This document shows, in pieces, positions 10,049-52,036 of a DNA stretch of 64,000 nt (the first letter of the stretch is position 1; every line of letters begins with the position of its first letter). The notes under the pieces are model-generated. The model worked only from the letters and a program-made list of their open reading frames with translations, was not told where the DNA came from and did no database searches. The stretch lies in NCBI GenBank assembly GCA_014879535.1, contig JACSRX010000029.1:93476-157475 (forward strand). The letters run 5' to 3'. The stretch is from Chthoniobacterales bacterium. GTDB taxonomy: Bacteria > Verrucomicrobiota > Verrucomicrobiia > Chthoniobacterales > JACTMZ01. The position numbers and the translations under genes are program-made.

Positions 10049-10144
10049 TTCCCAGAAGGAAGGCGAGCAGAGTGTGAGGTGCGGGCAACCGCCTGCACGA
10101 GTTCAACAGAAAAAATCACCAGTCACACCGATCAAACATGCTGG

Positions 10145-13100
10145 ATGAGAATGCGTCTAAGATTCATCCTGATGGAACTTGCCCCCGTCGTTTCACCGTT
10201 GGCAGGCGCGTGCGGCATTCCGGGCGGACTCACCGAATCGACCAAAAGCTGCCGCCTGCGCTGGCGGACCGCACTTGCGGCCTTGATCGTTCTGGCACCG
10301 CACTCACTCCAAGCGGTTGTTCCCTACACGGGAGGCAGCTATTCTCAGACTTTCGACGGTCTCCACGGCTCGGCCATCGCGCTGGCAGACCTGCCGATCA
10401 CCGGCTTCCCCTACCATCTTGCAGACGCTCCTTTCACCGGATCCTCCGGCATGGGAGGCTGGTATGTGCGCAATGTTGCGTCCGCGGCACTCGCATACAG
10501 AGTCTACGCCGACGCCGGCTCCGGTTCCGGCTATATCAACTTCGGCCTCGCGGGATCCACCAACCGCGCCCTCGGAGGAATTGCCGGAAGCACCAATGCC
10601 CGCCCGCAATTTGGAGTTGTCCTGCGCAACGATACCGGCGGGACGATCAATGAAATCGCAGTTTCCTTCGCCGGGGAGCAATGGCGGGGGACAGGGTCTG
10701 CGACAACCCTGGTCTTTGACTACCAAATCGGAGCGACCCCAAGCGTCGCTGCAGGGGGGACTTTCACGGAACCCGGAGGGAATTTCAACTTCACCGCCTC
10801 CGGTGCCAGCGGCAGCATCAATGGCAAGGTCGAGGGGCGCGTCAACAGCCTGGGGGGCACGTTGTCCGGCCTGACTTGGGCACCGGGACAATATCTCGTC
10901 TTGCGTTGGTCGAACTCCACGAGCGCCGCGGGGATGGCCATCGATGATTTTCAGATCTCCACCCCGGGAGCACCTCCGCCCACCCCCACACCGACTCCGA
11001 GTCCCACACCGCCGCCAAGCCCCGAGTCGGCTTTCATGCCTTTCACCGGCCACCATTACAGCCAAAACTTCGACGGTCTTCATGCATCCTCGCTGAACGG
11101 TGCCTCGCTGCTGCCCGCCGCGAGCTACCCGTATTACCTCGACCAACCACCGTTCACCGAAGGCATCGGGCTGCGCGGATGGTTTGTGCGCAACGGAAGC
11201 TCGGCTTCGCCGGCTTACCGGGTTTACGGCATGGCCGGCGAATCCACCGGATTTGTCAGTTTCGGAAGAGGCTCGAGCGGCGGCGGAGACCGCTCTCTGG
11301 GCGGCATCTCCAACGGCGGGAACACCAGGCCACAATTCGGCATCGTGCTGAAAAACGTCACGGGCGTTGCAATCTCCGAACTGGACATCTCCTTCTCCGG
11401 CGAGCAATGGCGCGGCACGGGGGCATCCGTCACGATGAAATTCGGCTACGGGGTGCAATTCACTCCGGACACCTCCGCGGCGACGCTGGTGGAACCGGGC
11501 GGAAACTTCAACTTCACGGCCAGTGCCCCGGCCGGCGCGATCTATGGGGACACGCATGGACGCTCCGCGGGCTTGGGAGGCTCGCTCCAGAACCTGAATT
11601 GGAACCCCGGCGAATATCTCGTGCTCCGCTGGAGCATCGATGATGCGAACGCGGGGCTGGCCCTCGACGATCTCACCATCACGGCCCCCGGTCTCGCGCC
11701 CAAAGCCGCCGTCGTGCAGGACGACTGGGTTTACGTGAAGTTCCCCCACGCGTTCTCGGTCTCCCAGCAGCGATGGTTCCGTCTTGCGGGCGACAGCGTG
11801 CCCTCCGGCATGACGGACAACGCATTCCAGCCCATCAAGGGCGATGCGCTGAATCCCGCGACCGCCCCCGAGGAACGCGTGAGCCCGGCCTACGCGTCCA
11901 CCGGAGCGGATCCCAAGACGCTCCTCCGCTGGCCCACGAGGGCCGGGGCGGTTTCCTACAACGTGCATTTCGGAACATCCTCGTCGCTGGGTTCAGGCCA
12001 GTTCCTCGGCAATCGTGCCGACCGCTGGATCAGTCCGGGCAACCTCGCGCCCAACACGCAGTATTTCTGGAGGGTGGATGCCGTGGATGCCTTGGGCAAT
12101 GTCACCGCCGGCAACCTGTGGCACTTCTGGACGGGCGACACACCGGGGACGATCACCATGGTCGACACGATGCCCAACGAGCCCCCGAACTACTTCCTGC
12201 GCGACTGGAAGCAGGTGGCGCGCGGGTTTGACAGCATGGTCAGTGATTTCAACGCCGAAGGGCAGTATCTGCCGATCCCGTTCTACACGAGCGCGAAGCG
12301 CAACTTCCCGCAGGCCTTCGTGAACATCGGCAGTTTCATCGGCCACTTCTCCCTCGCCGGCGGAATGGCCACGCAGTCCACCGTGATCGGAGCCTCGCTC
12401 AGCGGCGTGGACAAATCGAAGGATCCCCTCACCGGCCTGAACTACGTGACCATGCAGTCCTCTTACCACAGCGTGGACAAAGGCTTGGGCGTGCTCTACC
12501 ACTCGCCGACCGCCGGTCCCGTGCAAAGCGGATGGTATCAGCTCTTCGCGGCGGTTTCCCACTGGCAACTCGTGGACCTCTACCCCGAGGTGGCTGTCAA
12601 CGAACTCATGCCTGCTAACGACGGGAACACTTACACGATGGAGGGCATCCTCCGATCGAACGCGGACAAATGGCGCGATGCCTCGCAGGTCATCAACGGC
12701 AACTATTCCTTTTTTGCCTTCAACTTCGAGACCATGCAGCCGGACTATGGCGGCACGCTGCTCCCGCACCTTGCGGGTCCGGTTGCATGGCTGGAATACA
12801 CGGCCTACCAGCGCTACGGGGACACGGGCTATCTCGCTGCCGCCGATCAGGCCTTGGGCTTCCTGCAGGACCTGGGTTTCAACCCCAACCACGATCTCCT
12901 TCTTCCCTATGCCGGTGTCGCGGCCGCCCGCATGAACGCGGAGATCGGGAGGAACTTCAATGTCGGAAAGTTCATCAACTGGCACTTCGACAACAACGGC
13001 GATGTGAATGAAAGCACCGGCGTCGCGGGCGGTGAAACTTGGGGCGGCAGCTCCGTGGCGGGTCTGGCCGGCAAACCCGCCCTCCCCATCGAGAAGGTCT

Positions 13101-14650
13101 ATCCCGCGAACACATTCCACTCTGCCGGCGTCCTCGCCCCGGTGGCCAGGTATGACCAACGGTATGCGCAGCACATCGGCAAATGGCTGCTCAATGTGGC
13201 CGTCAACTCCCGCTTCTTCTATCCGAACTTCCTGCCGCCAACGAAGCAGGAGACGGCAAGCGCGGCGTGGGCGCAGCAATACGACACCAACGGCTACATC
13301 GCCTATGAGTTTCTGGGGAAGGACTCCTACTTCATCAACAAGCCGTTGGCAGACCACTCAACGCCGAATGGCAGCGTCCTTTCAGGCGACCACACCTCTC
13401 TGATGCTGGCCGATGACGGCAACTACATGGTGCTCAAGGGCGCCAATGTGCCCAGCGGCCCACGTCTCCGGCACATCTGGCAATTCAACGTCCCCTCAGG
13501 CTGGACTCACAAGCTGCGATTCGAGGGCCGCATCGTGGGTTCCGGGGCGGCCAGCGGCTTCCGGTTCGCCTACAGCAAGAATCCGGCCGGCCCGTGGACC
13601 AACATCGACCTCACATTCACCGACACGACAGAGGTCGAGCGGACGATGAATTTTGCGGAGGTGCTCAAGACGAACATTTCCCCGATTTCGGGGACTCTTT
13701 ACCTCCGCGTGGAGGATCTCGGCCCCCTGCCATCAGAAGGCCCCGACGAACTGCATCTCGACTTCCTGCAGATCCAGACGTTCGATGCCAACACGTCACC
13801 CTACCTCGGCGGCGGCCACACCGCACACGGCGGAACGACGGACCTCTGCCTCTACCAGAGCGCCCAAGTCGGCTACCTCGCCGGCCTCGTCGAGCCGACG
13901 AACGTGGAAGGCGTCCTCCAGATCGACCTCTGCGCAACCGACTTCCTCGGAGCCGCATCCTGGCCGACGTATCTCTATTACAACCCGAAGCCGAACTCGG
14001 TTTCCGTGCAGGTGAACGTGGGATCCGAGCCCGTCGACATCTACGACACAATCACGCAGCAGTTCCTCCAGCAGGGGGTTTCCGGCGTGCGCTCGTTCAA
14101 CATCCCGGCGAACTCCACCCGCGTGCTCGTTCTCACGAAATCCGGGGGACTGCGCTACTACCAAGGCGGCAAATTGTTCGTGGACGGCGCGGCCGTTGAC
14201 TACTACAACCCCGCCGCGCGCGCCGCGGAAGACACACCCGCGAACCCGGCCCCGCTCCATGCGTCTCTCCATGCGGCGCTGGCGGCGAGCCCCATGGGCG
14301 ACGGCATGTCGAACCTCCTCAAATACGCCGTGGGCCTCAACCCGCAAGCGCCGGCTTCCAAGACGGATCGCGAGGTTGTCAAACTGGCGAAGAATTCGTC
14401 GGGCCACAATGAACTCCGGCTCCGGATTCCCGCGAGGCGCGACGACGTGCGCTACACCGTCCAGGGCTCCACTGACCTGAAGACATGGACGACGCTGGCC
14501 AAGGCCGAGGGGCGGAACGCCTTCTCTGCGGCAGAGGGCCTCGGTCATCCGCTTTCCATCGGAAGTGAGGGAGATCGCATCGTCCTTGGTGGATTCGATG
14601 ACGAAGACGCACCGGCGGCATTCTATCGCCTGAAGGTCGAACTCCGCTGA
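10145..14650 (+). CDS. Giant secreted protein. It has two copies of an unassigned module of about 210 aa and a Pro/Thr linker. These are followed by an Fn3-like segment, a large central region of unknown (possibly glycoside-hydrolase-like) function and a shared C-terminal tail.
   Basis: The track ORF 9080..14650 is antisense to the CYTH-like gene upstream of 10145. The first in-frame ATGs are at 10145/10151 (MRMRLRFIL...). Signal-like LRWRTALAALIVLAPHSLQA. Module hallmarks: YSQTFDGL...GWYVRN...AYRVY...NRALGGI...RPQFGVVLRN...FAGEQWRGTG...GGNFNFTAS...LRWS...IDD. Start codon uncertain. Confidence 0.8.
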   Translation: MRMRLRFILMELAPVVSPLAGACGIPGGLTESTKSCRLRWRTALAALIVLAPHSLQAVVPYTGGSYSQTFDGLHGSAIALADLPITGFPYHLADAPFTGSSGMGGWYVRNVASAALAYRVYADAGSGSGYINFGLAGSTNRALGGIAGSTNARPQFGVVLRNDTGGTINEIAVSFAGEQWRGTGSATTLVFDYQIGATPSVAAGGTFTEPGGNFNFTASGASGSINGKVEGRVNSLGGTLSGLTWAPGQYLVLRWSNSTSAAGMAIDDFQISTPGAPPPTPTPTPSPTPPPSPESAFMPFTGHHYSQNFDGLHASSLNGASLLPAASYPYYLDQPPFTEGIGLRGWFVRNGSSASPAYRVYGMAGESTGFVSFGRGSSGGGDRSLGGISNGGNTRPQFGIVLKNVTGVAISELDISFSGEQWRGTGASVTMKFGYGVQFTPDTSAATLVEPGGNFNFTASAPAGAIYGDTHGRSAGLGGSLQNLNWNPGEYLVLRWSIDDANAGLALDDLTITAPGLAPKAAVVQDDWVYVKFPHAFSVSQQRWFRLAGDSVPSGMTDNAFQPIKGDALNPATAPEERVSPAYASTGADPKTLLRWPTRAGAVSYNVHFGTSSSLGSGQFLGNRADRWISPGNLAPNTQYFWRVDAVDALGNVTAGNLWHFWTGDTPGTITMVDTMPNEPPNYFLRDWKQVARGFDSMVSDFNAEGQYLPIPFYTSAKRNFPQAFVNIGSFIGHFSLAGGMATQSTVIGASLSGVDKSKDPLTGLNYVTMQSSYHSVDKGLGVLYHSPTAGPVQSGWYQLFAAVSHWQLVDLYPEVAVNELMPANDGNTYTMEGILRSNADKWRDASQVINGNYSFFAFNFETMQPDYGGTLLPHLAGPVAWLEYTAYQRYGDTGYLAAADQALGFLQDLGFNPNHDLLLPYAGVAAARMNAEIGRNFNVGKFINWHFDNNGDVNESTGVAGGETWGGSSVAGLAGKPALPIEKVYPANTFHSAGVLAPVARYDQRYAQHIGKWLLNVAVNSRFFYPNFLPPTKQETASAAWAQQYDTNGYIAYEFLGKDSYFINKPLADHSTPNGSVLSGDHTSLMLADDGNYMVLKGANVPSGPRLRHIWQFNVPSGWTHKLRFEGRIVGSGAASGFRFAYSKNPAGPWTNIDLTFTDTTEVERTMNFAEVLKTNISPISGTLYLRVEDLGPLPSEGPDELHLDFLQIQTFDANTSPYLGGGHTAHGGTTDLCLYQSAQVGYLAGLVEPTNVEGVLQIDLCATDFLGAASWPTYLYYNPKPNSVSVQVNVGSEPVDIYDTITQQFLQQGVSGVRSFNIPANSTRVLVLTKSGGLRYYQGGKLFVDGAAVDYYNPAARAAEDTPANPAPLHASLHAALAASPMGDGMSNLLKYAVGLNPQAPASKTDREVVKLAKNSSGHNELRLRIPARRDDVRYTVQGSTDLKTWTTLAKAEGRNAFSAAEGLGHPLSIGSEGDRIVLGGFDDEDAPAAFYRLKVELR

Positions 14651-14694
14651 CACGCTGCGCAACAGCACCCCATTCCTCTGATCCCGACAATCTC

Positions 14695-17600
14695 ATGAAA
14701 GCACCGCCTCCCCCGATCGGGACACGCACCCACTGCATGCTTCAAGTCAAGTCCGGTCCCTTCCGCTGGATGGCGGGGCTGGCGGCGGCAATCGCCTTCT
14801 TCCCGGCGATGCTTCACGCAGCAGCGCCGATTGAAGGAGCGAAGGTGATTTATCTCGGTGACAGTCTGACGAGCAACAATGGAACCCTCGGACCGCAGCG
14901 CGGTTACTACCACTGGACGGATGTGGTGCAGCGGAGGTTCAACCTGCAGGTCATCGCAAATCTCGGCAAAGGCGGCAGCCGGGCGGATGCCGGCCTGGAC
15001 CGGTTGAACGAACAACTTGCCAGCGCCGCACCCACTCCGGATTTCGTCCTCATCAACTTCGGCATGAACGACCACAAGATTGCCGAAGCAACAGGACTTC
15101 CGGTTTCGAGCACCACGGCCTTCGGACAGCAATTGACGGCGATTGTCACCAAGGTGAGGAGTGTGGGCGCCGAGCCGATTCTGGTCGCGCCACATGCCAT
15201 CTACGAGGGCGAAGCCGGCGGCGCCTATTACTACGGAAAATACGATCCGGCGAACTTTGTGGCAGACGGGGGCGCCCTGCAGAGGTTCGATACTTTCATC
15301 GCGGCCATCCGCAACGTCGCCCAGCAGCAGAACGTGCGCCTGATCGACATCCGCAAGGTGTCCGACGAATACGATGGCAGGGAATACACAAGCGAGGGCG
15401 TCCACCTCAGCAAACTGGGGCACCACATCTACGGTGACACGATCGGCAATTTTCTGTCCGCCAATTACCTCAGCGAGGGCTATGTCCCCGCTCCGGTCGC
15501 GTCGTTCACGGGCGGAGCCTTGCCGCATGAGCAATCGTTCAACGCCCTCCACAACGTTGCGCTCTCCACGGAGGACCTGCCCGTGGAAGGTATGCCGCAC
15601 CACCTTGCCGCCTCCCCGTTCTCCGGCTCGTCCATGGCCGGATGGTATGTGCGCAACATCGCAGCCGGCCCGCTCGCCTACAGGGTTTACGGAGACACAG
15701 GATCGAGCTCCGGGCATGTCAATTTCGGCGCGACTGACGCTTCGAACCGCGCTCTGGGCGGCATTTCAAACGGCGGCAGTTCCCTTCCGCAGTTCGGCGT
15801 CGTCCTCCGCAACGACACCGGCTCAACCATCGGGGATGTCGTGATCTCCTTTGCGGGAGAGCAATGGCGCGGGACAGGTGCGGCTGCGACCCTGGTTTTC
15901 GACTACATGGTGGGCACCACCCCGAGCATCGCCGCGGCGGGGCCGTTCACGGAACCGGGTGGAAATTTCAACTTCACCGCTTCCGGAGCAAGCGGCAGCA
16001 TCAACGGCAAAGTCGAGGGCCGCGTCAACGATCTCGGCGGCACATTGTCCGGACTCAACTGGGCTCCGGGACAATACCTCGTCCTGCGCTGGTCGAACTC
16101 CTCGAACACTGCGGGCATGGCCATCGATGATTTCCGCATTTCAGGAATCGTGCATCCCGAGCCGGTCGTTCATTTCACGGGAACGGGTTACGAGCAGACC
16201 TTCGATGGATTGCACCAGGGAGGCATCGCCTTGGCGGACCTCCCGACAAGCGGGTTTCCCTACCTGCTTGCCGCGGCGCCGTTCAACACCTCGGAGGGGA
16301 TGGACGGATGGTATGTGCGAAACATTTCGTCGGCAGCCTTGGCCTACAGGGTTTACGGGGAAACGGGCACAGGGTCCGGATTCATCAACTTCGGCCTGAC
16401 CGGCGCCTCGAACCGTGCCTTGGGAGGCATCTCCAATGGGAATAGCGCACGACCGCAGTTCGGTGTCGTTGTGCGCAACGACACGGGCGCGACCATCACA
16501 CAGATCCCCATTTCCTATGTGGGCGAGCAGTGGCGCGGCACAGGCTCGGCCACAACGCTGGTGTTCGACTACATGGTCAGCCCAACCCCGAACATCGCCG
16601 CGTCCGGGACATTCATCGCACCCGGGGAAAGCTTCAATTTCACCGCCTCCGGCGCCAGCGGCAGCATCAACGGCAAGACGGCCGGAAGGACACCGGGTCT
16701 TGGCGGCATGCTGAGCGGGCTCAATTGGGCTCCCGGACAGTATCTCATCCTGCGTTGGTCGAACTCCACGAACACCGCAGGAATGGCCATCGACGATTTC
16801 CGCCTCGGTGACGCCGAGTTCGATCCCGATCCAGATCCCACGCCAACACCGACTCCGACTCCGACGCCTGCTCCCACACCAACTCCGACGCCAACACCGA
16901 CCCCGGCCCCATCGGGACCGATTGTCACCTTCGCAGGAAGCTACGCCCAGACTTTCAACGGGCTCTCCGGCGCGAGCATTTCCTCAACCGAACTGCCAAT
17001 CGCCGGGTTCCCCTACCTGTTGGATGCCGCACCATTTTCAGGTGCCTCGGGCCTGGCCGGATGGCATGTGCGCAACATCGCAGCTGCGGCACTGGCCTAC
17101 AGGGTTCACGGAGAAACGGGCACAGGCTCCGGTTACATAAACTTCGGGCTCACGGGCTCCACGGATCGTGCGCTCGGCGCAACAGCCGGCGCGAGCAATG
17201 CGCGTCCGCAATTCGGCGTCGTGCTGCGCAACAACACGGCATCCACGATCAGTCAAATCGCAATCTCATTCGCCGGAGAGCAGTGGCGCGGCACCGGCTC
17301 AGCAACGACTCTCGTCTTCGACTACCAAGTCGGGAATTTGCCGAGCATCGCCGCAACGGGAACCTTCACCGAGCCGGGTGGGAACTTCAATTTCACGGCC
17401 TCCGGCGCCAGCGGCAGCATCAATGGCAAGGTCGCGGGACGCGTCGGCAACCTCGGAGGCACCTTGTCAGGTCTCAACTGGGCACCCGGCCAATACCTCA
17501 TCCTGCGCTGGTCGAACTCCACAAACTCCGCAGGCATGGCGATTGACGATTTGCAGATCGTCAGCATTGGAGCCCCTCCTCCAACTCCCACGCCCACCCC

Positions 17601-36490: not shown

Positions 36491-36540
36491 CTCCGATCGC
36501 TTGCCACGTGCCCTTGGTGATTTGTTGACAGGTCCCTTTC
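36491..36540 (+). repeat. Island repeat unit, short copy D
   Basis: CTCCGATCGCTTGCCACGTGCCCTTGGTGATTTGTTGACAGGTCCCTTTC. Collinear with 37229-37318 apart from two internal deletions. Confidence 0.8.
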
Positions 36541-36553
36541 TGGGGTTGGTTGA

Positions 36554-36586
36554 CATGATGGCCTTTTGCTCCATGATGCCATCATG
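36554..36586 (+). promoter_or_regulatory. Candidate vapBC operator: CATGATGGC / GCCATCATG inverted repeat plus a third CATGATG
   Basis: CATGATGGCCTTTTGCTCCATGATGCCATCATG has 9-bp perfect arms at 36554-36562 and 36578-36586. It overlaps the vapB ATG (36584). A TTGACA lies just upstream at 36550-36555. Confidence 0.45.
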
Positions 36587-36817
36587 ATAAAGACGCAGAT
36601 CCAATTGGAAGAGTGGCAGTATCGTGCCGCGAAGAACGAGTCGGCGAGGACTTCGCGCAGTCTCTCCGACCTCGTCCGGGAGGGGCTGACCTCGGTTCTG
36701 CAGAAATCCCGGCATCAACCCCGCCAAACGCTGGAAAGTCTGGCCGGCAAGTATGGACCACAGTCCACCGACGATCTCAAACCGCATGACCAAGCTTGGG
36801 CGGATTCGATCCGATGA
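36584..36817 (+). CDS. vapB: Ribbon-helix-helix type antitoxin (VapB-like)
   Basis: MIKTQIQLEEWQYRAAKNESARTSRSLSDLVREGL... ATGA overlap with the PIN toxin gene. Confidence 0.7.
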   Translation: MIKTQIQLEEWQYRAAKNESARTSRSLSDLVREGLTSVLQKSRHQPRQTLESLAGKYGPQSTDDLKPHDQAWADSIR

Positions 36818-37218
36818 AGCCCGTGTTTGTGGACACGAGCGGCTTCTACGCGTTCCTCGACCGCACCGACCCGTTCCACGACCAAGCCAGCACCTTTTTT
36901 CTCCGGGCCCGTGACGAGGGCTGGGGGCTCTTCACTTCGAGCTATGTGGTCCACGAAACCTGGGCCCTCATCCAAGCACGCCTCGGCTGGGGCGCCGTGG
37001 AAGACTGGCTCTCCTCCCTGCTTCCCCTTTGCGAGGTCGTGTGGGTCGATGAAACCCTCCACCGCCTCGGCATGGCCCGCGCCCGCCAAGTCAGGGAAAG
37101 ACGACTGAGCCTCACCGACTGCGTCTCCTTCGAGGTCATGTCCGCCCGCAACTGCCTCGAAGCCATCGCCGACGACGAGCACTTCCGCAAACTGGGCTAC
37201 CTCCCACCCAAGGATTGA
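36814..37218 (+). CDS. vapC: PIN-domain toxin (VapC family)
   Basis: MKPVFVDTSGFYAFLDRTDPFH (first acidic residue), ...TSSYVVHET..., ...LSLTDCVSFEVM..., ...AIADDEHF. Confidence 0.8.
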   Translation: MKPVFVDTSGFYAFLDRTDPFHDQASTFFLRARDEGWGLFTSSYVVHETWALIQARLGWGAVEDWLSSLLPLCEVVWVDETLHRLGMARARQVRERRLSLTDCVSFEVMSARNCLEAIADDEHFRKLGYLPPKD

Positions 37219-37228
37219 TCCGCCCCTC

Positions 37229-37318
37229 CTCCGATCGCTCGCCACGTGCCCCATGGCGGGGAAAAAGGAAAGCATGGTGACTGTGTTGAGATTTGTTGAC
37301 AGACCCCTTTTTGCCTTT
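37229..37318 (+). repeat. Island repeat unit, long copy A. It is a direct repeat of D, and its distal 39 bp is an inverted repeat of units B and C.
   Basis: CTCCGATCGCTCGCCACGTGCCCCATGGCGGGGAAAAAGGAAAGCATGGTGACTGTGTTGAGATTTGTTGACAGACCCCTTTTTGCCTT. Positions 37285-37307 are the exact reverse complement of 41833-41855 and 42401-42423. Confidence 0.85.
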
Positions 37319-37326: not shown

Positions 37327-40300
37327 TCACCCACGAGACGCCTTTGTGTTCCATACAAATCCAACCTTTTGGAGTTGTTGAACGCGATTAGGTTTAAGTG
37401 TTCCTATCTTGAAGTGCGTTCGTTGTGTATTGACCCACCTACCAAGGAGCTTATCACCTCCGCCTTTTTGCGGGACGTTGCAGTGGCCATGGAGTTTCTT
37501 GAATTCAACCAACCTGTCGAACATTCGATCCCATGCATTCCGCTCAACTAGACGCCAGCTAAAGCCAATTTCATCGAGACGCTTGCTGCGCTTGGCGATG
37601 ATGGGACGATTGTATCGCTTTGCAGCCCGCTGACTTCGAACCCAAGTTCCAAGAGCAGCGTATTTACCGGAACGTTGAGGAACGTTTGTGTGGCCATGCT
37701 CTTTCTTAAATTCGACAAGTTGCCGGAACATTTCTTCCCAGCGGGTGCCAATTGGATCCCACTCGAAGCCCGCGTCGTTCAGCCGCTGCACGCGGTCTGG
37801 AGCGAGACGTTCGCGGCTGTAAGCCATGCGCTGTTCTGAAACCCAGTCTGCGAGTTTTCGATTCTCTTTCCACCGCTGCGGAACGAGGCAGTCGCCGTGC
37901 GCCTGTTTGTATTCGAGCAACGCCTGAAACATCATCTCGAAGTATTTTACGCTGGATAGCGGCCTCTCACCATTCGACGGTTTGGGCATGTGCGTTCGCG
38001 GCCTGCCACCTTTTCGCCCACCGTCCCAATCAAAAGCCAGTTCGTTCAGTCGTGCGATTTGCCAATCTGCCAGCTTCTGCTTCCGATACTTCCGTCGTTG
38101 TGTTGTGACCCACCATCCCAGCTTTTTGTCAGGCCGATAAACTTGTGGGACGGCTGCGTGACCGTGCTCCGCATGGAATGCAATAAGCCGCTTCAGCATT
38201 GTGTTCCACGCTTCCTGTGGGGAGCGGGTGCCGCTGAATTCACCGAGCCTCCAAGCGAAACCGAGAGCATCAAGCGCGGCGATTCGCTCGGGTGAAAGTT
38301 TGCCATCCAGCTTCCGCGCACGCTGAACCCCAACCCAATTCGCCAGCACTGGATTCTTGCTCCAGGCGGCTGGAACGCGACAGTGGCCGTGCTCCGCATG
38401 AAACCGCTTCAGTTCTCCAAGCATCCTATTCCAACGCGATGCGAACGGCTCCCACTCGAATCCGATGCCGGTGAGCCGCTTCTCACGCTCGGGTTCTAGG
38501 TCTCCGCGCTTTTTCGATTGGCGCTGAGTCAGCATCCACCGTTTCAGTTCGTCGCTGGCGGGTGCCTCTCGCCGCTTTCCATTGTGCATGGGCCGCATGT
38601 GTTCGACCAACTTTGCGAACATGGCATCCCAAGCGCCATCATGTGTGCTCCAGGCAAAGCCGATTTCCTCCATTCTGCTCACCTGCTCCGGCGTGAGCTG
38701 ATTCTGCTTCTTGGCCCGCCGTTGTATGGCGACCCAACGAGCAAGTTGGGGTTGAGGCGTCCAATCGGCAGGCACGTTGCAGTGGCCGTGCAGTTTGAAG
38801 AAGTCCACCAACTCAGAAAGCATTTCGTCCCATGTGCGGGTGATGGGAGTCTCGTCCACAGGAATAAGCTGCGAGGGCATCCCGATGCGCCGCGCGTTTC
38901 GCTGCCACACGAAACCAATTTCGTTCAGGGCGTTGATTCGCGTCTCGCTCAGCTCGCCCCGCTTCTTAGCCTGCCTCTGAGTCAGCATCCAGCGGTTGAG
39001 CTTCTTCGTGTCCTCGTCCACCACATAAACCGCAGCAGCGCCGTGCGCGGCGGCGTAAGCCCGAAAGCGGTCGAAAGCCACACGCCACTGCTTGTCTGGG
39101 TCGGTCGTTTTTTCATCAGCTCTGCTTGCTGCAGTTCGCCCATCCCATTCAAACCCGATAGAATTTAAGCGCTCAACAAGTGCATCAGAGAGTTTCCCCT
39201 TTTTATGCTGGTGTCGCTGACGAACAACCCACCTTCCCAGAAGCCCATTTTCTGCCCACTGCACATTGACGCGGGTGTGGCCAAATCTCTCCTTGAAAGC
39301 ACAAAGGTCAGCGAATCGCTTTTCCCATGTGCTTCGGTCGACCTTCCAGTCGAACCCAATCTTCTCGAGTAACGCAATTCGATCTCCATGTAGTTCGCCA
39401 CTCAGGAAGTCCATCCGCTGGGTTTTCACCCAGTGAGCCAGCGAATTGTTCTCCTTCCAATTCTGCGGAACACGGCAATGCCCGAAGCGTTTCTGGAACT
39501 TCACCAACTCCAGATAGGCACCTCGCCAATTCGTTTCTCTCGGATTCCAATTAAAACCCAGACGGTTCAAGAGCTCGACTTTCTCCGGCTCCAGATTGCC
39601 ATCACGTTTCCGCACTCGCTGATCCACAACCCATGTCGCCAGTTTTTGGTGCGCGTCCCATCGAGCGGGAATGCCGCAATCCCCGTGCTTCTGTTTGTAG
39701 GCAACCAGTTGCCCGTAACGCTCGAACCATGGTTCGCCAACCGCATCGAGACATGCCGCAGTGATGGTGCTGCGTAGCACTTCGAGGGAAAGCTCCGGCC
39801 CGAATATCTCCACTCGTTCTCGGAAACGGCTGTCGTCAAATCCGCCCGTGCAACCCCGCTCAATCCGCATCTCGGCGATAGTCTGAGCAAGCAGGTCGTC
39901 CTGCTCCTTCAGGCTCTGAAGGACTCTCCAAACCTCGTCGAAATTACTGCGCAAGACCGCCTGCTCAGTGGTCTCGCCGCGTGCCTCCTCGACGTAGAGC
40001 GGCACTAACACGTAGCCGATTTCCTTCTCTGGAGAGCGTCGCATTGCTCGGCCTGTCGCCTGCACGATGTCCACAATGCTTCTCTTCGGACTGAGAAACG
40101 CCACCATGTCAACAGCGGGAACATCCACGCCTTCCGTGAGACATCGCGCGTTGGAGAGAATGGCGCGCGGAGCGGCAGCGAATTCGCGCAGTAGCCGTTC
40201 GCGGTAAACGGTAGTCATCGCCCCTTCGATGTGCGCACAATGAAATCCCTTGAGATGTGTGCCGATGCCTTCCGGTCCGCCGGAGGTGAACGACTTAGCC

Positions 40301-41721
40301 GAATTGACCTTGGAGTGGAAGGTGAACACTTTCGAAACTTTGTATTTCTCAATGGCTGACTTGAGCGCGATTTGATTGGCAACTTGTCGGGCCTTTACTT
40401 CGTCCCCTTCGACCAGGACAACACCAAGCCGCAGCGCTTCGTTGGTGACCATCTCCGATGTCACAACCGAAATCAGCACCTTATAGTCGGTGATGATTCC
40501 AGCCTTCGCTGCCGCGTTGAACGGCAGCCGATGAACGACTTGCCCGTAAGTCTCGGGCACATTCATCGAGAAGACGACTTTCGATTCACCAAACTTGTCC
40601 TTCTTCGCCACGTCATAGTGACGCGGTGTCGCAGTCATGAAAAGTCGGCGTGCAATGGGCAGATTCTCGTCCTTGAGCGCGAGTGCAAACCTCGCGCCGT
40701 CTCGTCCAGCGGTCTTATGAGCTTCGTCGAACACGCCGAAATCAAAAGGCGGCAAGCCAGCGACGGCTGCCGCGACGACTTGGCTGGATTGATACGTGGA
40801 GAACACCAACCGCACCGAGTCGGTCTGCCTCTCAAGGAAGCGCCGCACGTCGGTAGCCTGCGTAGTGACCGCAAAGTCGAGGTCGGACGGGCGAACCAAC
40901 AGCGAATCTTCCTCCGGCTGAACTGTCGGATCGGAACAGACGCACAGGAATTGAACATCCGGCCAACTCGTCTCGTGAAGCCACTCGTGCAACGTCTGGC
41001 GAACCAGTGCCAGCGAAGGCAGCAAAACCAGCACGGTGCGTGCCCCAAGTCGTTCCGCAGCCCAAAGGGCGACCAAGGTCTTACCGCTGCCGCAAGCCAT
41101 CAATGCCGTGGCTCGTGGACCGCGTGCCAAACCTCCAACAATATCATTCAGGGCGACGACTTGGTGAGGCTTTGGATGTTTCCTTTTAGGGGCGGCCGCT
41201 CGCTCCGCGAGCCAAGCTTCGATGATCTGGAAATCCTCCGGCGTTAGGCGGTCGAGGTCGCTGCCCCTGACGAAGATGGCCCCCAACCGTTCCTCAGCGA
41301 CGCGGGCGACTTCATCGCAGTTGGTAAATACGAGCCTGCGCGCGCCAACATCAGCCAGGCCATAAAAAGTAGAAAGTTCGGTCCAAGTGAGCGCTGGCCG
41401 CCCAGTGCGGAACTTTGATTGGTAGCAGACGGGCTCCTCCACCGAACTGACGAATACTCCATCCACTCCCATGTCTGCCAACGGCAAGCGGAGTTGCTGG
41501 CGCAGTGATGAAGGCATTGAGTTTCCCGGCCAAACGTCGCGAGCCTGATAGATTCGCTGTGTCGCCAAACACGCTTCGGCGAAGACTTCGAGTGCTGCAC
41601 CTCTCGCTTGCTCCGTTGGCAGTGCTGCAATTCGCTCTTCAAGCTCGGCGAAAATCTGAACCCCTGACATCAAGCCGAGGCCATGAAAATGTTTCGCTTT
41701 GGGATGACGCGGCAGGTTCAT
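37327..41721 (-). CDS. Nuclease-helicase with an N-terminal PD-(D/E)xK (Mrr-like) domain, an SF2 DEAH helicase core and eleven tandem HA (helicase-associated) repeats
   Basis: 1,464 aa. Nuclease-like ...LADMGVDGVF...VCYQSKF. Walker A MACGSGKT (aa 208-215), DEAH (332-335), TAT (363-365), LTEGVDVP, and motif VI QATGRAMR (554-561). From aa ~663 there are eleven units of the form W..F..L..F...HGH..VP......L..WV..QR......L...R...L..IGF.W. Confidence 0.85.
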   Translation of the reverse strand: MNLPRHPKAKHFHGLGLMSGVQIFAELEERIAALPTEQARGAALEVFAEACLATQRIYQARDVWPGNSMPSSLRQQLRLPLADMGVDGVFVSSVEEPVCYQSKFRTGRPALTWTELSTFYGLADVGARRLVFTNCDEVARVAEERLGAIFVRGSDLDRLTPEDFQIIEAWLAERAAAPKRKHPKPHQVVALNDIVGGLARGPRATALMACGSGKTLVALWAAERLGARTVLVLLPSLALVRQTLHEWLHETSWPDVQFLCVCSDPTVQPEEDSLLVRPSDLDFAVTTQATDVRRFLERQTDSVRLVFSTYQSSQVVAAAVAGLPPFDFGVFDEAHKTAGRDGARFALALKDENLPIARRLFMTATPRHYDVAKKDKFGESKVVFSMNVPETYGQVVHRLPFNAAAKAGIITDYKVLISVVTSEMVTNEALRLGVVLVEGDEVKARQVANQIALKSAIEKYKVSKVFTFHSKVNSAKSFTSGGPEGIGTHLKGFHCAHIEGAMTTVYRERLLREFAAAPRAILSNARCLTEGVDVPAVDMVAFLSPKRSIVDIVQATGRAMRRSPEKEIGYVLVPLYVEEARGETTEQAVLRSNFDEVWRVLQSLKEQDDLLAQTIAEMRIERGCTGGFDDSRFRERVEIFGPELSLEVLRSTITAACLDAVGEPWFERYGQLVAYKQKHGDCGIPARWDAHQKLATWVVDQRVRKRDGNLEPEKVELLNRLGFNWNPRETNWRGAYLELVKFQKRFGHCRVPQNWKENNSLAHWVKTQRMDFLSGELHGDRIALLEKIGFDWKVDRSTWEKRFADLCAFKERFGHTRVNVQWAENGLLGRWVVRQRHQHKKGKLSDALVERLNSIGFEWDGRTAASRADEKTTDPDKQWRVAFDRFRAYAAAHGAAAVYVVDEDTKKLNRWMLTQRQAKKRGELSETRINALNEIGFVWQRNARRIGMPSQLIPVDETPITRTWDEMLSELVDFFKLHGHCNVPADWTPQPQLARWVAIQRRAKKQNQLTPEQVSRMEEIGFAWSTHDGAWDAMFAKLVEHMRPMHNGKRREAPASDELKRWMLTQRQSKKRGDLEPEREKRLTGIGFEWEPFASRWNRMLGELKRFHAEHGHCRVPAAWSKNPVLANWVGVQRARKLDGKLSPERIAALDALGFAWRLGEFSGTRSPQEAWNTMLKRLIAFHAEHGHAAVPQVYRPDKKLGWWVTTQRRKYRKQKLADWQIARLNELAFDWDGGRKGGRPRTHMPKPSNGERPLSSVKYFEMMFQALLEYKQAHGDCLVPQRWKENRKLADWVSEQRMAYSRERLAPDRVQRLNDAGFEWDPIGTRWEEMFRQLVEFKKEHGHTNVPQRSGKYAALGTWVRSQRAAKRYNRPIIAKRSKRLDEIGFSWRLVERNAWDRMFDRLVEFKKLHGHCNVPQKGGGDKLLGRWVNTQRTHFKIGTLKPNRVQQLQKVGFVWNTKASRG
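37330..39735 (-). repeat. Coding tandem array of 11 HA-domain units (about 66-73 aa each), diverged at the DNA level
   Basis: Unit starts read from the translation: EPWFERYGQL, TNWRGAYLEL, STWEKRFADL, KQWRVAFDRF, RTWDEMLSEL, GAWDAMFAKL, SRWNRMLGEL, EAWNTMLKRL, KYFEMMFQAL, TRWEEMFRQL, NAWDRMFDRL. Confidence 0.85.
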
Positions 41722-41826
41722 TCGCCGTGTTTCAGAATGAATTGCACACCTGTTTCATGCTGCCATTGGCGAGGACGAAGCTGGCCATGCCTTGCGGGGC
41801 GAGGTGGTGTATAAAGTGCTGCCCAT

Positions 41827-41941
41827 GCAAATGGGGTCTGTCAACAAATCTCAACAATGTCTCAAGATCTCCCGATACCGGAAGCAGGTGGTGACTCGCT
41901 CGTTGACCATGCCGACGGCCTGCATGAAGGCGTAGCAGATG
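41827..41941. repeat. Island repeat unit B plus a truncated third copy (75 bp) of the tag 3' end
   Basis: GCAAATGGGGTCTGTCAACAAATCTCAACAATGTCTCAAG is followed by ATCTCCCGATACCGGAAGCAGGTGGTGACTCGCTCGTTGACCATGCCGACGGCCTGCATGAAGGCGTAGCAGATG. It is collinear with 42395-42509, with a few mismatches. Confidence 0.85.
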
Positions 41942-41949
41942 TGCAGGCA

Positions 41950-42231
41950 TCAGAGGGCAACGTAGGCTTTTGCGCCCCCGGGAATCCGCGAGGGGTCAAT
42001 CCTGGCGTCGAAGGTGGCAAAGCGGCCGCCGTGTTTCACCGCCAAGTGGTGGATGGATGGGGATGGCACGCCGGAATTCCTCCTCGTCAAGTTCCGCCTC
42101 GATCTCCTTGATCTTCTCCAAGGTGATCGTTTCCCCAGCCCCCCCTCTGTAGCGCCAAGAATCCAAGGGGCCCGATTTCGAATTTCTCCGGGGCTGGGTT
42201 GGTCGTTTTCATGGATATGGGTGTGTGTCAA
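41950..42231 (-). pseudogene. Toxin-antitoxin remnant: C-terminal fragment of a PIN/VapC-type toxin, possibly fused to an antitoxin fragment
   Basis: The track ORF ends ...SIHHLAVKHGGRFATFDARIDPSRIPGGAKAYVAL, like VapC C-termini (..LAA.A..HG..LATFD..F...PG...). No N-terminal PIN acidic residues are present. A neighbouring frame reads ETITLEKIKEIEAELDEEEFRRA. Confidence 0.45.
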
Positions 42232-42269
42232 ATATCACTCGAAAAGCCCCTCCTTGTCAGCCATCCATA

Positions 42270-42390
42270 ACCTCCCGATGCCGAAAGCAGGTGGTCACAT
42301 GGTCGTTGACCATGCCGACGGCTTGCATGAAGGCGTAGCAGATGGTCGAGCCGACGAAGTTGAAGCCGAGCTTTTTGAGGTCCTTGCTCA
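42270..42390. repeat. Second copy (121 bp) of the tag 3' end with its own stop context
   Basis: Differs from 42435-42555 at 5 of 121 positions. On the minus strand it encodes (V)SKDLKKLGFNFVGSTICYAFMQAVGMVNDHVTTCFRHREVMDG*. Confidence 0.9.
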
Positions 42391-42391
42391 C

Positions 42392-42555
42392 AAGGCAAAA
42401 GGGGTCTGTCAACAAATCTCAACAATGTCTCAATACCTCCCGATGCCGGAAGCAGGTGGTGACGTGGTCGTTGACCATGCCGACGGCCTGCATGAAGGCG
42501 TAGCAGATGGTCGAGCCGACGAAGTTGAAGCCGAGCTTTTTGAGATCCTTGCTCA
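42392..42555. repeat. Island repeat unit C plus the resident copy of the repeated tag 3' segment
   Basis: AAGGCAAAAGGGGTCTGTCAACAAATCTCAACAATGTCTCAAT is followed by the last ~40 codons of tag. The last six tag codons and the stop (EVLRHC*) are encoded inside unit C. Confidence 0.9.
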
Positions 42556-48910: not shown

Positions 48911-51900
48911 TCAGGGAATGGTGAGTTTGATGCGGACGAAGCGCCGCCCCGCACTGCCGGGTGGCAGGGTTGCCTTCACATGCTGGATGAGGCCATTGTC
49001 CGAGATGACTCCTGAGGCTACTCCTGCGGTGCTCCAGCTTCCCGTCTTCAGGTCTTCGTGCCATTCCACGGTGAATGTCGCACCCGCTGCCACCGCCGCA
49101 ACACTCCGGGTGTAATGGTATTCAATGCTGTCTCCATTGTGCATCAATGTGAAAGGCAGTGCATTGGGAGTATTCGGGTCCAGCCCAAAAGCCCACTCCA
49201 GACAATTCGAAAGGCCGTCTTTGTCTGTGTCGTCCCCTCCCGTTAGATTGGCTTGGGCAAGGTGAGGTGAAATCTTGTTCCCTGCTTTCCCGAAACGTCC
49301 TCCGGCATACAGATTGGCACCATCCAAGGCCAAGGCAAAGACGCTGCCATCAACGCCCGAACCAAGCGCCGACCATTCCACCCCATTCCACTTTGCAATG
49401 CCATTGGCCCCCACGCCGCCAGCAGACATGAAAAATCCTCCTGCATAAAGGTTGCCACCGCCATCCACAGCCAGAGCATACACATAGGCATAGCTCCCCC
49501 ACTCTCCTTCGATGCCCGAACCCAACGCCAACCATTCGCTGCCGTTCCACCGCGCGATACTATTGGCTTCCTCATCATCGGCAGTGCCAAAATATCCCCC
49601 TGCGTAAAGGTTGCCGCTGCCATCCACAGCCAAGGCATAAACATATGTATTGCCCCATTCATCCTCCATGCCCGAACCCAAGGCAGACCATGTGCTGCCG
49701 TTCCACTTGGCGATGTTGTGGGCTTCGACGCCGCCTGCGGTATTGAACCAACCTCCCGCGTAAAGGTTGCCGCCTCCATCCACAGCCAAGGCATTAACGG
49801 AGCCGACTTCGGTCCACCACTCCTGCGAGGTCTCCATGCCCAAACCCAAGGCAGACCACGCGCTGCCGTCCCATTGCGCAATACTATTGGCATCTTCTCC
49901 GCCCGCGGTGGTGAAGCTTCCTCCTGCATAAAGATTACCGAAGTCATCCGCAGCCAAGGCATTGACATAGGCATAGCCCGATTCGTCATTGACGCCCGAT
50001 CCCAATGCAGACCACGCACTGCCGTTCCACCTTGCGATCCTGCTGGCCTCCATTCCACCCGCGATGGTGAAGCTCCCCCCTGCGTAAAGGTTGCCGCTGC
50101 CATCCACAGCCAAGGCATGGACGTCGCCACCAGAGAAACCCAAACCCAAGGTCGACCAAGCACTGCCATTCCACTTGGCGATGCGATTGGCATCTATTCC
50201 CCCCGCCGTGCTGAATCCTCCCCCCACATAGAGGTTGCCGTCGCCGTCCGCGATCAAGGCAGAAACGCTGCTATTTATACCCAACCCGGCATCTAAGGCT
50301 GACCACGCGCTGCCGTTCCACTTCGCGATACCATTATCCCCGCGCCCAGTATAGACAGTGCCATTGCCGTCCACAGCCAAGGCATAAACATGACCAATAC
50401 CTGAACCCACCGCTGACCATGTGCTACCGTCCCACTTGGCTATCCCGTTCACTTCAACCCCTCCCGCAGCGGTGAACCATCCTCCTGCCCAGACATTCCC
50501 GCTGCCGTCAACAACCAAGGCCATAACCGAGCCTGCACCGCCCTCCACGCCCGAGTCCAATGGAGACCATGTGCTGCTGTCCCACTTGGCGATATTATTG
50601 GCCTCCACGTCGCCCGCCATGGTGAATCCGCCTCCTGCGTAGAGGTCGCCGCTGGCATCCACTGCCAAGGCACTGACACTGCCGCCGCTGACCCCATCAC
50701 CCAGAGCGGACCACATATAGCCATTCCACTTGGCAATGTTGTTGACCTCCACGCCACCTGCGGTGTTGAACCAACCTCCCGCGTAGAGATTGCCGCTGCC
50801 ATCCACTGCCAAGGCGGAGATAGAGCCATCCATGCCCGATCCTAAGATCGACCATGCGCTGCCATTCCACCTCGCAATACAATTTGCCTCCACGCCGCCT
50901 GCGGTGTTGAACCAACCTCCCGCGTAGAGGATGTCACTTTCGTCCACAACCAATGCATAAACCACTCCATCATCCATGCCCGAGCCCAGTGCTGACCATA
51001 CGCTGCCGTTCCACATTGCAACACCATTGGCCTCCACTCCACCTGCAGTGCTGAAGCCTCCGCCTGCGTAGACATTCCCGCTTCCATCCACCGCCAAGGC
51101 ACCAACGCCACCATTGATGCCCAAGCCCAGCGCCGACCACGCGCTGCCACTCCACCTCGCGATGCAACTTGCCGCAATCCCGCCTGCGGTGCTGAAGCTC
51201 CCACCCACGTAGAGATTGCCGTTTCCATCCACAACCAACGCATCGACGGAACCGCTTATGTCAGGTGCATCAGGGTTAAGGACGATCCAATCAGCATCAC
51301 TGAATGTAGGATCGATCCGAACAGGGTAAACCGCTCCGGCGTCATCGACGCGCACGGCCAGCCGTCCCGAATCAAGAACTTCCATATGTGCGGAAAGTTC
51401 GCATCCAGAAGCATCAGTCACATGCAGCCGGTGGTAGGCCAACTCCCTCCCCGTGGCCTCAATGGTCAGCTTCGCCCCGTAGTCTGCTGCCTCGGCGCGC
51501 GCACCCGTCACCTCCATCACCACGCTCAACTCCCCTGCGCCCGCAGGCCGCTCAAGCACCACGAAGTCCTGCCTCACCCCGTCGCCGCTCACACGGTATT
51601 CCTCCACCAATCCCGGGCGAACCCACGAGACCGACTCGTTCCCAACCAGAATACTCCCCTTGGGCAGCAGCGCCACGGATGTTTCCCGCCCCACCAACGC
51701 GGCGCTGAGACGGAAGCAGTTGGGCTTGTCCAAGTCCTCGTCCGCTGTCGAGGTGAGCCACAGTCCTTCGGGTGTAACCTCTCCCTCCAAGTCTTGCAGG
51801 ACAGCCCGCAACTTGGCCCCGGCAGCCGTTGGCGTGATGCCCATGCCCTCGCCGGAATATTGCCTCTGCGCCTCAACCCCAAGCTGGTCAAATGGGATGG

Positions 51901-52036
51901 ATGCCGAAGGCTGGGGTTCCGCAGAGGCCAGCGCATCACCGCCTGCTATCGGGAAGACACAGGCGAGGATTGCGGCAACGAGTAAGCATCGGAAGCTGCA
52001 ACCTCCACTCTGATGGGGAGAGTCGGCTGAAGTCAT
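48911..52036 (-). CDS. Secreted beta-propeller-repeat (SBBP-like) protein with 13 tandem repeats and the shared C-terminal tail
   Basis: Signal-like CLLVAAILACVFPIAGGDALA. 13 units of about 50 aa with IA[KR]W[ND]GS.WSALG.G...V.ALAVDGSGNLYAGG.F..AGGV.A. The tail is DTDKDGLSNCLEWAFGLDPNTPN...RRFVRIKLTIP. Confidence 0.85.
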   Translation of the reverse strand: MTSADSPHQSGGCSFRCLLVAAILACVFPIAGGDALASAEPQPSASIPFDQLGVEAQRQYSGEGMGITPTAAGAKLRAVLQDLEGEVTPEGLWLTSTADEDLDKPNCFRLSAALVGRETSVALLPKGSILVGNESVSWVRPGLVEEYRVSGDGVRQDFVVLERPAGAGELSVVMEVTGARAEAADYGAKLTIEATGRELAYHRLHVTDASGCELSAHMEVLDSGRLAVRVDDAGAVYPVRIDPTFSDADWIVLNPDAPDISGSVDALVVDGNGNLYVGGSFSTAGGIAASCIARWSGSAWSALGLGINGGVGALAVDGSGNVYAGGGFSTAGGVEANGVAMWNGSVWSALGSGMDDGVVYALVVDESDILYAGGWFNTAGGVEANCIARWNGSAWSILGSGMDGSISALAVDGSGNLYAGGWFNTAGGVEVNNIAKWNGYMWSALGDGVSGGSVSALAVDASGDLYAGGGFTMAGDVEANNIAKWDSSTWSPLDSGVEGGAGSVMALVVDGSGNVWAGGWFTAAGGVEVNGIAKWDGSTWSAVGSGIGHVYALAVDGNGTVYTGRGDNGIAKWNGSAWSALDAGLGINSSVSALIADGDGNLYVGGGFSTAGGIDANRIAKWNGSAWSTLGLGFSGGDVHALAVDGSGNLYAGGSFTIAGGMEASRIARWNGSAWSALGSGVNDESGYAYVNALAADDFGNLYAGGSFTTAGGEDANSIAQWDGSAWSALGLGMETSQEWWTEVGSVNALAVDGGGNLYAGGWFNTAGGVEAHNIAKWNGSTWSALGSGMEDEWGNTYVYALAVDGSGNLYAGGYFGTADDEEANSIARWNGSEWLALGSGIEGEWGSYAYVYALAVDGGGNLYAGGFFMSAGGVGANGIAKWNGVEWSALGSGVDGSVFALALDGANLYAGGRFGKAGNKISPHLAQANLTGGDDTDKDGLSNCLEWAFGLDPNTPNALPFTLMHNGDSIEYHYTRSVAAVAAGATFTVEWHEDLKTGSWSTAGVASGVISDNGLIQHVKATLPPGSAGRRFVRIKLTIP

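Follow-up and report, generated by a model that had tools for sequence, protein, structure and literature searches.

A predicted nuclease–translocase related to type ISP restriction enzymes carries an eleven-unit HA array in place of a methylase in a Chthoniobacterales bacterium

Results

A 1,464-codon gene of foreign composition downstream of tag

We analyzed a 64,000-nt stretch of DNA from a Chthoniobacterales bacterium (contig JACSRX010000029.1, positions 93,476 to 157,475; hereafter, the window), focusing on a single uninterrupted open reading frame (ORF) of 1,464 codons on the minus strand (37327..41721, stop codon included), located downstream of the DNA-repair gene tag. The product is predicted to comprise an Mrr-type nuclease, a superfamily 2 (SF2) translocase and eleven tandem helicase-associated (HA) units (Table 1). 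An earlier reading made from the letters alone (the sequence-only reading) had described this ORF without giving its strand, and had listed nuclease and SF2 motifs, all of which we found at the residues named. The ATG start codon is supported by conservation of the N-terminus, M...RHPKA, in close homologues. The GC content of the region is 0.55-0.59, versus ~0.64 in the flanks, and the GC content at third codon positions (GC3) of the ORF is 0.62, versus ~0.80 for neighbouring genes, in agreement with the earlier description of the region as compositionally foreign. Elsewhere, the window carries ordinary chromosomal genes (PheT, SMC, AcrB and similar). No integrase, conjugation, replication, telomere or terminal-protein genes were present within the 64 kb, and no RNA gene or tRNA integration site was detected at the locus (no tRNA, no Rfam match).

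Table 1. Coordinates of the gene, its predicted domains and the flanking features
Feature	Coordinates	Strand	Details	Evidence
Whole ORF: predicted Mrr-type nuclease, SF2 translocase and 11-unit HA array	37327..41721	minus	1,464 aa	
Predicted Mrr-family PD-(D/E)xK nuclease domain	41212..41649	minus	residues ~25-170	alignment with LlaBIII (4XQK), LlaGI mutagenesis, invariance
Predicted SF2 helicase-like double-stranded DNA (dsDNA) translocase core	39874..41196	minus	residues ~176-616	Pfam, alignment with LlaBIII and LlaGI, PADLOC, motifs
Linker from motor to first HA unit	39733..39873	minus	47 aa, residues 617-663	LlaBIII alignment ends at residue 616
HA (PF03457) three-helix array	37351..39732	minus	11 units, residues 664-1457, blocks 3-1-3-1-3	Pfam, AlphaFold models, 2KTA match
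Dead N6-adenine DNA methyltransferase remnant	41754..41831	minus	directly upstream of the ORF; includes ...HFIHHLAPQGMASFVLANGSM...	blastn to the N6_Mtase fragment of the related locus L048
Upstream boundary repeat	41829..41987	minus	degenerate tag 3' end (29 codons, 86 % aa identity, stop) and 22-nt element	
Inverted boundary element copy	37267..37311	plus	GATTTGTTGACAGACCCCTTT core; 16 nt past the stop codon	
Intact toxin–antitoxin (TA) pair	36566..37218	plus	83-aa putative antitoxin (36566-36817), PIN toxin (36796-37218)	Pfam PIN; antitoxin by position and size only
Second partial tag 3'-end duplicate with decayed antitoxin/PIN remnants	42007..42390	minus	duplicate 42257-42390, remnants 42007-42205	pair intact in L048

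The N-terminal half resembles the nuclease and motor of type ISP enzymes

In the 1,464-aa protein, Pfam detected ResIII (residues 182-367), Helicase_C (453-562) and also DEAD, together with HA (PF03457) in 11 stretches (E 3.4e-189, 613.9 bits; gathering cut-off 28.4), confirming the count of eleven HA units. Pfam gave no nuclease match at E<=0.1, although Mrr_cat_2 (PF13156) was matched by family members and by relatives that lack HA. In a search of PDB sequences, residues 36-616 aligned with residues 29-653 of LlaBIII (4XQK; E 3e-53), and residues 176-616 with residues 7-489 of LlaGI (5FFJ; E 2.5e-49). The Mrr-type nuclease proposed earlier is therefore borne out by alignment with type ISP enzymes and by the PF13156 matches of relatives. 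LlaGI and LlaBIII, both type ISP enzymes (a single-polypeptide form of type I), are established phage-defence enzymes. 

All three nuclease motifs are present in the protein: motif I E (E45, in ALEVF at 43), motif II D-x-G-(V/I)-D (D83-M-G-V-D87) and motif III Q-x-K (Q101-S-K103). By alignment, E45, D83, D87, Q101 and K103 are the counterparts of LlaGI E38, D74, D78, Q92 and K94, respectively. In LlaGI, the D74A, D78A and K94A mutations abolish cleavage and E38A and Q92A reduce it, with translocation retained in all five mutants (PMC2790908). These five residues were unchanged in 128-142 of 142 aligned homologues. Similarly, every SF2 motif residue that we examined in the same 142 homologues was invariant or nearly so, including Walker A K214 (GSGKT, 211-215), DEAH (332-335), TAT (363-365) and motifs V and VI within 528-561 (LTEGVDVP at 528, QATGRAMR at 554). 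This pattern of invariance indicates that the predicted nuclease and translocase activities are both under purifying selection. By homology, the protein thus has an Mrr nuclease and a type ISP-type dsDNA translocase, both predicted to be competent, since every residue known to be needed is retained.

Like LlaGI and LlaBIII, the protein is a single polypeptide in which an Mrr nuclease is followed by an SF2 translocase, homologous over ~580 residues and with the same residues and motifs. By contrast, it has no detectable similarity to the type ISP coupler, no gamma-class N6-adenine methyltransferase and no target recognition domain (TRD), which in type ISP enzymes reads an asymmetric site of 6-7 bp; instead, eleven HA units follow the motor. 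No N6_Mtase or other methyltransferase match was obtained when the protein was scanned against Pfam, NCBIfam and PADLOC, and a TRD is absent, as the C-terminal 800 aa consist throughout of HA units and linkers according to Pfam and the unit coordinates. The linker at residues 617-663 stands where the coupler would be expected; sequence similarity to the coupler is undetectable there, and the LlaBIII alignment stops at residue 653 of that enzyme. Where type ISP enzymes carry the coupler, methylase and TRD, HA is the only domain family recognizable in our protein. Because methylase and TRD were searched for and not found, the protein is not a type ISP restriction–modification (R-M) enzyme; judged from the alignments, it is the restriction (R) half of such an enzyme joined to a different, putative reader.

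The PADLOC searches gave a similar picture. The best matches were profiles of type IIG and type I restriction enzyme–methyltransferase fusions and covered their N-terminal third only; the REase_MTase_IIG profile, for example, was matched at positions 19-653 of 1646. In PADLOC-DB v2, there was no full-length match, and the partial matches were to the R-half of R-M fusions and to generic helicase parts of PbeA and mREase_IV. None of the NCBIfam models reached its cut-off for the 1,464-aa protein.

The HA array is old, positionally conserved and rapidly diverging

The HA units (units 1-6: residues 664-725, 731-792, 798-859, 878-939, 963-1024 and 1030-1090; units 7-11: residues 1096-1157, 1171-1232, 1260-1321, 1327-1389 and 1396-1457) have a period of 66-89 aa. 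They share 25-47 % aa identity with one another (mean 36 %) and 46 % at the DNA level, indicating that the array is old; a recent amplification of repeats was rejected on this ground. In an AlphaFold2 model built from a 70-sequence alignment, each unit forms three helices with a predicted local distance difference test score (pLDDT) of 80-90, and the blocks are set apart by low-confidence flexible linkers; pLDDT is also low where the array model begins, on the linker side. A separate model of units 9-11 had a pLDDT of 88.6 and a predicted template modelling score (pTM) of 0.55. Foldseek found no structural analogue of the whole array or of the triplet in the PDB (best E 0.4 and 2.3). In a profile search of PDB sequences, only 2KTA, a nuclear magnetic resonance (NMR) structure of the HA domain of BVU_0683, matched a unit (E 9e-9). 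Both have the signature W...W..QR...GKL...IGF.W, but 2KTA is an isolated single domain, whereas the units of our protein form a tandem array.

We then compared the array among 77 orthologues. Each unit was 55-90 % identical to the unit at the same position, versus ~45 % for the next-best unit, and this positional orthology persisted down to ~46 % overall identity and was lost in distant clades. In orthologues with 13 units (P0010, P0021, P0044 and P0082), the extra units are located at the long linkers after unit 3 and/or unit 8, suggesting that HA units are gained and lost at block boundaries; relatives carry 3-16 units per protein. Columns W2, L31, W34, Q38, R39, F60 and W62 are invariant across all units. 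Columns 1, 13, 20, 23-25, 28, 33, 36, 40 and 41 vary among units and are kept within each orthologous unit, which makes them candidate positions for ligand specificity. Several of these variable columns flank the invariant Q-R on helix 2, with helix boundaries taken from the model of units 9-11. The net charge per unit ranges from -1 to +9, with a total of ~+48.

The array had a mean identity of 49 %, versus 74 % for the nuclease-motor core, and was the lower of the two in 99 of 100 homologues. The array thus diverges about twice as fast as the core, a rate that has to be read with care because unit gain and loss depress identities taken from single high-scoring BLAST segments. A specificity module would be expected to show such rapid divergence together with gain and loss of units.

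The protein belongs to a large family with exchangeable C-terminal parts

More than 1,874 proteins, mainly from Verrucomicrobiota, matched at E<=1e-20. The best 120 matches were full-length or nearly so, with 41-89 % identity, and bore names no fuller than 'Helicase associated domain protein' or 'superfamily II helicase'. Named host genomes belonged mostly to Verrucomicrobiota (Luteolibacter, Akkermansiaceae, Limisphaerales), and further hosts included Planctomycetaceae, Gallionella, Colwellia, Simkaniaceae, Eisenbacteria and DPANN archaea. A profile of the HA unit matched 33,509 representative clusters of 1.84 billion proteins (6,703 at E<=1e-30). HA arrays of 7-26 units are common, so that an array of 11 units is typical rather than exceptional; the earlier statement that HA usually occurs in a few copies did not hold. 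Many HA proteins consist of the array only and are too short to contain a helicase (e.g., 872 aa with 12 units and 665 aa with 10 units); these may be stand-alone arrays or pieces of broken genes.

At several loci (L035-L040; e.g., L038 10004-13609), a chassis of Mrr_cat_2 and SF2 domains without HA carries other C-terminal modules, including INT_rpt repeats (PF14882; E 2.6e-16). The fusion of this chassis to INT_rpt repeats, and to a methyltransferase-TRD in type ISP enzymes, points to a modular design of effector plus reader, and suggests a nuclease-motor family with interchangeable repeat-array readers. At five other loci (L007, L016, L026, L030 and L033), the helicase-HA frame is split into shorter ORFs, with tblastn matches covering most of the query. 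These broken frames may be pseudogenes, or may reflect frameshift or collapse errors of long-read or repeat-rich assemblies.

Among plasmid records, 410 from Streptomyces matched. These matches lie 0.5-3 kb from the ends of linear plasmids and begin at residue 184 of the query, and a telomere-proximal protein showed 27 % identity to the query over 840 aa (BLASTP, E 2e-53). As judged from these alignments, they are TtrA-type proteins, with the same motor, few HA units and no nuclease. TtrA, a helicase with tandem HA domains, has been assigned to conjugation or telomere recognition. The TniQ target selectors of Tn7-like transposons likewise contain HA. Our protein resembles TtrA in having a motor of the same SF2 clade followed by tandem HA units and in its database name, which is likewise 'Helicase associated domain protein'. 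TtrA-type proteins have no nuclease and only ~4 HA units, are encoded near the telomeres of linear replicons and have been linked to conjugal transfer, not to restriction. With its nuclease and its non-telomeric location, our protein is therefore not a TtrA. In addition, 115 Pseudomonas plasmid records matched; Pseudomonas megaplasmids (~320-530 kb among the records listed) encode a helicase with few HA units and without the nuclease. On the P. aeruginosa plasmid pSE5369-VIM (L047), the helicase-HA gene (292574-295231) is surrounded by hypothetical genes, with Fic, HEPN and an antirestriction gene nearby. Phage-encoded relatives were limited to partial helicase matches and two Listeria records resembling the N-terminal halves of type ISP enzymes, and were not informative.

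These results qualify the earlier statement that no characterized system has such an architecture: the N-terminal 620 aa correspond to a type ISP R-half, HA-helicases are already known, as in TtrA, and the family has more than 1,800 members. The family is large and less singular than was first thought.

Only the ORF is conserved between genomes

We clustered 1,972 flanking ORFs from 38 loci, located within 7 kb on each side, by all-against-all comparison. No cluster was found in more than two of the 38 loci, and a conserved partner gene or operon was rejected accordingly. In a Pfam scan of 128 neighbour ORFs, no family occurred in more than three, and no DNA methylase was detected. The claim that the protein lacks a methyltransferase partner thus stands: there is none in the protein and none that recurs in the ~38 loci.

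DNA homology between the window and 30 related loci was confined to the ORF, with a spill of at most ~80 nt upstream and 6 nt downstream. Hence, the bare ORF alone is conserved between genomes. Homologues with 87 % and 71 % identity lie in unrelated neighbourhoods. Annotated homologue loci are singletons among housekeeping genes, often beside TA pairs (PIN/DUF2281, ParE), IS110 and small hypothetical genes. At one locus (L043), a gene for a mad3/PtuA-like AAA_15 ATPase (6422-7735; PADLOC E 2.5e-21) lies directly upstream of the helicase-HA gene.

The gene occupies a cargo-swapping slot

We identified a relative (L048) whose Tag is 92 % identical and whose gene order is syntenic on both sides of the slot that holds the gene: SMC, FUSC, HlyD, MlaE, MlaD and Tag on one side, and DUF3368, AhpC, Bax1-I and Glt symporter on the other. 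The DNA identity between the flanks of the slot in the window and those in L048 is 93 % and 86.5 %. In L048, the slot from tag to DUF3368 (10570-15688) has no helicase; it contains two antitoxin and PIN pairs, a further PIN gene, a Fic protein (PADLOC SoFic, E 3.8e-55), a 157-aa N6_Mtase fragment (PADLOC MTase_I, E 1e-26) and a 308-aa ORF without a family match. This cargo forms a compact islet of defence and TA genes in Verrucomicrobiota. The comparison indicates that the 4.4-kb gene stands in for 1.1 kb of other cargo, with precise boundaries: the 80 nt ahead of the ATG (41754-41831) are what is left of the methylase gene of L048, and the 72-nt flank downstream of the stop codon (37240-37311) matches L048 just past the 308-aa ORF. 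The slot downstream of tag is a hotspot that swaps defence and TA cargo.

The sequence-only reading had placed the gene between TA modules. Downstream, this holds, as an intact PIN pair and a UPF0175/DUF3368 pair are present, and the variable slot is evident from L048; upstream, only decayed remnants of a TA pair are left, which correspond to the first TA pair of L048.

The type I-like methylase remnant directly upstream of the ORF was considered as a former partner and rejected, because L048 has a longer copy without a helicase (12244-12717, 157 aa, retaining the NPPF motif region). The remnant therefore predates insertion of the gene; it is a relic of earlier slot cargo and not a partner gene, and the slot probably once held an R-M system. 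A 72-aa ORF directly upstream (41732-41950) was likewise dismissed as a candidate small partner: it has no Pfam match and joins a piece of tag to part of the dead methylase.

Discussion

On the evidence of its sequence, the protein is best read as a methylase-free, type ISP-derived restriction-like enzyme that would use its HA array as a DNA-recognition module. That it combines a nuclease, a translocase and a nucleic-acid-binding array is highly probable. Its location in a hotspot that swaps defence and TA cargo suggests that it is probably an uncharacterized, stand-alone nuclease directed against phages or plasmids, although we give such a defence role, taken by itself, about an even chance.

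In LlaGI and LlaBIII, target recognition by the methyltransferase-TRD triggers ATP hydrolysis; the enzymes then translocate downstream, consuming 1-2 ATP per bp, and cut at non-specific positions where converging enzymes collide, by repeated nicking (PMC4666363). We propose that in our protein the positively charged HA array would bind DNA as a target-recognition or loading module, in the stead of the methyltransferase-TRD, and that this binding would license ATP-driven translocation along duplex DNA. The nuclease would then nick repeatedly when the motor stalls or enzymes collide, producing double-strand breaks in the manner of type ISP enzymes. As there is no methyltransferase, protection of self DNA by methylation is impossible, and self DNA would have to be spared by the choice of target. 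This could be a long composite site, or else a feature that host DNA lacks, in a type IV or homing-type manner. The gene would travel as a bare ORF, which in this strain landed in the chromosomal hotspot downstream of tag.

Two groups of methylase-less enzymes offer further points of comparison. Like type IV enzymes, the protein is a nuclease without a cognate methyltransferase (over ~38 loci, with only the dead 80-nt methyltransferase relic upstream). It differs from them in having no modified-base reader (SRA, EVE/PUA, YTH or iEndoIII), as Pfam gives HA only in the non-enzymatic part. To our knowledge, HA is not a reader of modified bases. SauUSI, which is ATP-dependent and type IV-like, the END nucleases and fusions of phospholipase D (PLD) domains to HA likewise join, in one polypeptide without a methylase, a nuclease to a helicase or to a variable C-terminal DNA reader; in SauUSI and the END nucleases, however, the nuclease has the PLD fold, whereas ours is predicted to be of the Mrr PD-(D/E)xK type. 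A preprint on END nucleases names HA as one of the alternatives found at the C-terminus of PLD nucleases (PMC12191111). Methylase-less restriction enzymes have been described as having sensor-effector modularity, which a fast, unit-swapping array joined to a slow effector fits.

Several points weigh against this interpretation. TtrA, the characterized HA-helicase, appears to act in DNA transfer and not in defence, and our literature search found no paper characterizing any nuclease-SF2-HA protein. No PADLOC or NCBIfam model spans the whole protein, and no PADLOC model matches the HA array. Information on the ligand of HA is limited to the NMR study of 2KTA, the only HA unit with a solved structure, which according to the title of that study binds DNA. 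The inter-unit geometry of the array was not confidently predicted by AlphaFold2 (pTM 0.30), so that any wrapping of DNA by the array is speculative. The HA units hold their positions more strictly than the rapidly exchanged TRDs of R-M systems, as might be the case if the target were conserved, or even cellular. Finally, the defence-type context proposed earlier is seen in the cargo-swapping slot of the window; at other loci, the neighbours are mostly housekeeping genes and only a few neighbours match PADLOC defence models, making the association with defence genes modest.

One alternative is that the protein is a DNA-transfer or DNA-end-processing helicase of a mobile element, similar to TtrA, whose array recognizes an end, an origin or a telomere-like fold of the element for processing by the motor and nuclease. 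TtrA-type proteins belong to the same motor clade and have HA units in tandem (27 % identity over 840 aa), they are encoded 0.5-3 kb from linear-plasmid ends, and the description of TtrA as a conjugation or telomere-recognition helicase, the fusion of HA to TniQ target selectors and the helicase-HA genes of Pseudomonas megaplasmids all accord with such a role. Nevertheless, TtrA and the megaplasmid proteins are without the nuclease, and their matches start at residue 184. Moreover, the gene studied here is chromosomal, its 64-kb window holds no genes for conjugation, replication or an integrase, and its flanks are not conserved between genomes. We therefore regard a transfer function as unlikely.

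A second alternative is a cellular enzyme of DNA repair or recombination, similar to RadD, Hef or UvrB, whose array would have damaged DNA, branched DNA or some conserved feature of the chromosome as its ligand. The weak NCBIfam similarity to RadD, Hef, XPB and UvrB and the adjacency to the repair gene tag point in this direction, and the positional conservation of HA units across orthologues would fit a conserved cellular ligand. However, the NCBIfam similarities are far below the family cut-offs and reflect generic SF2 motifs only. The adjacency to tag is not conserved, with contexts that differ even at 87 % identity, and L048, whose flanks are 93 % identical, lacks the gene in the corresponding slot. 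Its foreign GC3 and its strongest homology, to restriction enzymes, also argue against a repair function, to which we assign a very low probability.

Equally improbable is a selfish, homing-like or addiction gene, with an array that recognizes a specific site of great length and a nuclease-motor that would promote the spread or retention of the gene by cutting any genome without it or without an immunity determinant. Conservation of the bare ORF alone, replacement of other cargo at precise boundaries, the location among TA addiction modules and the very long site that an 11-unit array could specify are compatible with it, but the loci have no target-site signature or flanks in common, the insertion site differs in every genome, and cleavage by the type ISP chassis falls at random, distant positions and not at a defined homing site (PMC4666363).

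Returning to the methylase-free restriction-like enzyme, a stronger version of this model would treat the HA array as a modular code for DNA recognition. With a few bp read per unit, 11-13 units would specify a site long enough not to occur in the host, and the protein would be a restriction motor without a methylase that recognizes DNA in a manner similar to transcription activator-like effectors. The contacts of each unit would be made by residues specific to it, located on the exposed side of helix 2 and in the loop between helices 1 and 2 (columns 20, 23-25, 28, 33, 36, 40 and 41), and specificity would evolve by substitution, gain and loss of units. We consider this version unlikely.

If the model of a restriction-like enzyme is true, the ATP-dependent restriction enzymes would have a methylase-free branch with thousands of members. 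This family, prominent in Verrucomicrobiota and Planctomycetota, occurs also in Proteobacteria, Chlamydiota and DPANN archaea, and is missed by current defence-finder catalogues. We know of no established role for the HA domain; the model would give a function to this domain, which is found in more than 33,000 protein clusters, in TtrA, in TniQ selectors and in nuclease fusions. The strict positional identity of the units, together with the fast divergence of the array, provides a good entry to the question of how tandem three-helix modules read DNA. If the modular-code version is also true, the family would represent both a new class of restriction enzymes and a new programmable DNA-binding scaffold.

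Boundary repeats and other features of the window

The earlier description of the island as repeat-bounded was right in that repeats exist, but these turned out to be duplicated pieces of the tag 3' end that are specific to one genome. At 41829-42555 (minus strand), the last ~42 codons of tag together with the 22-nt element that lies downstream of them are duplicated twice, with 95 % and 86 % aa identity. The boundary element is present in four copies, all at cassette junctions (0 expected by chance), and its inverted copies (36519-36542 and 37267-37311) flank the intact PIN TA cassette. The element is absent from the loci of other genomes, and its core occurs only in contigs of the strain under study. 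Inverted repeats acting as ends of a mobile element that carries the gene were rejected, because they are derived from the 3' end of tag and are strain-specific. The sequence downstream of tag behaves as a hotspot for cassette insertion, with no recombinase nearby.

Elsewhere in the window, a 1,856-aa ORF (9080-14650, plus strand) has no Pfam match at E<=1e-5, and a 1,041-aa beta-propeller protein is encoded on the minus strand (48911-52036) in a second low-GC stretch (GC 0.57-0.62, GC3 0.64).

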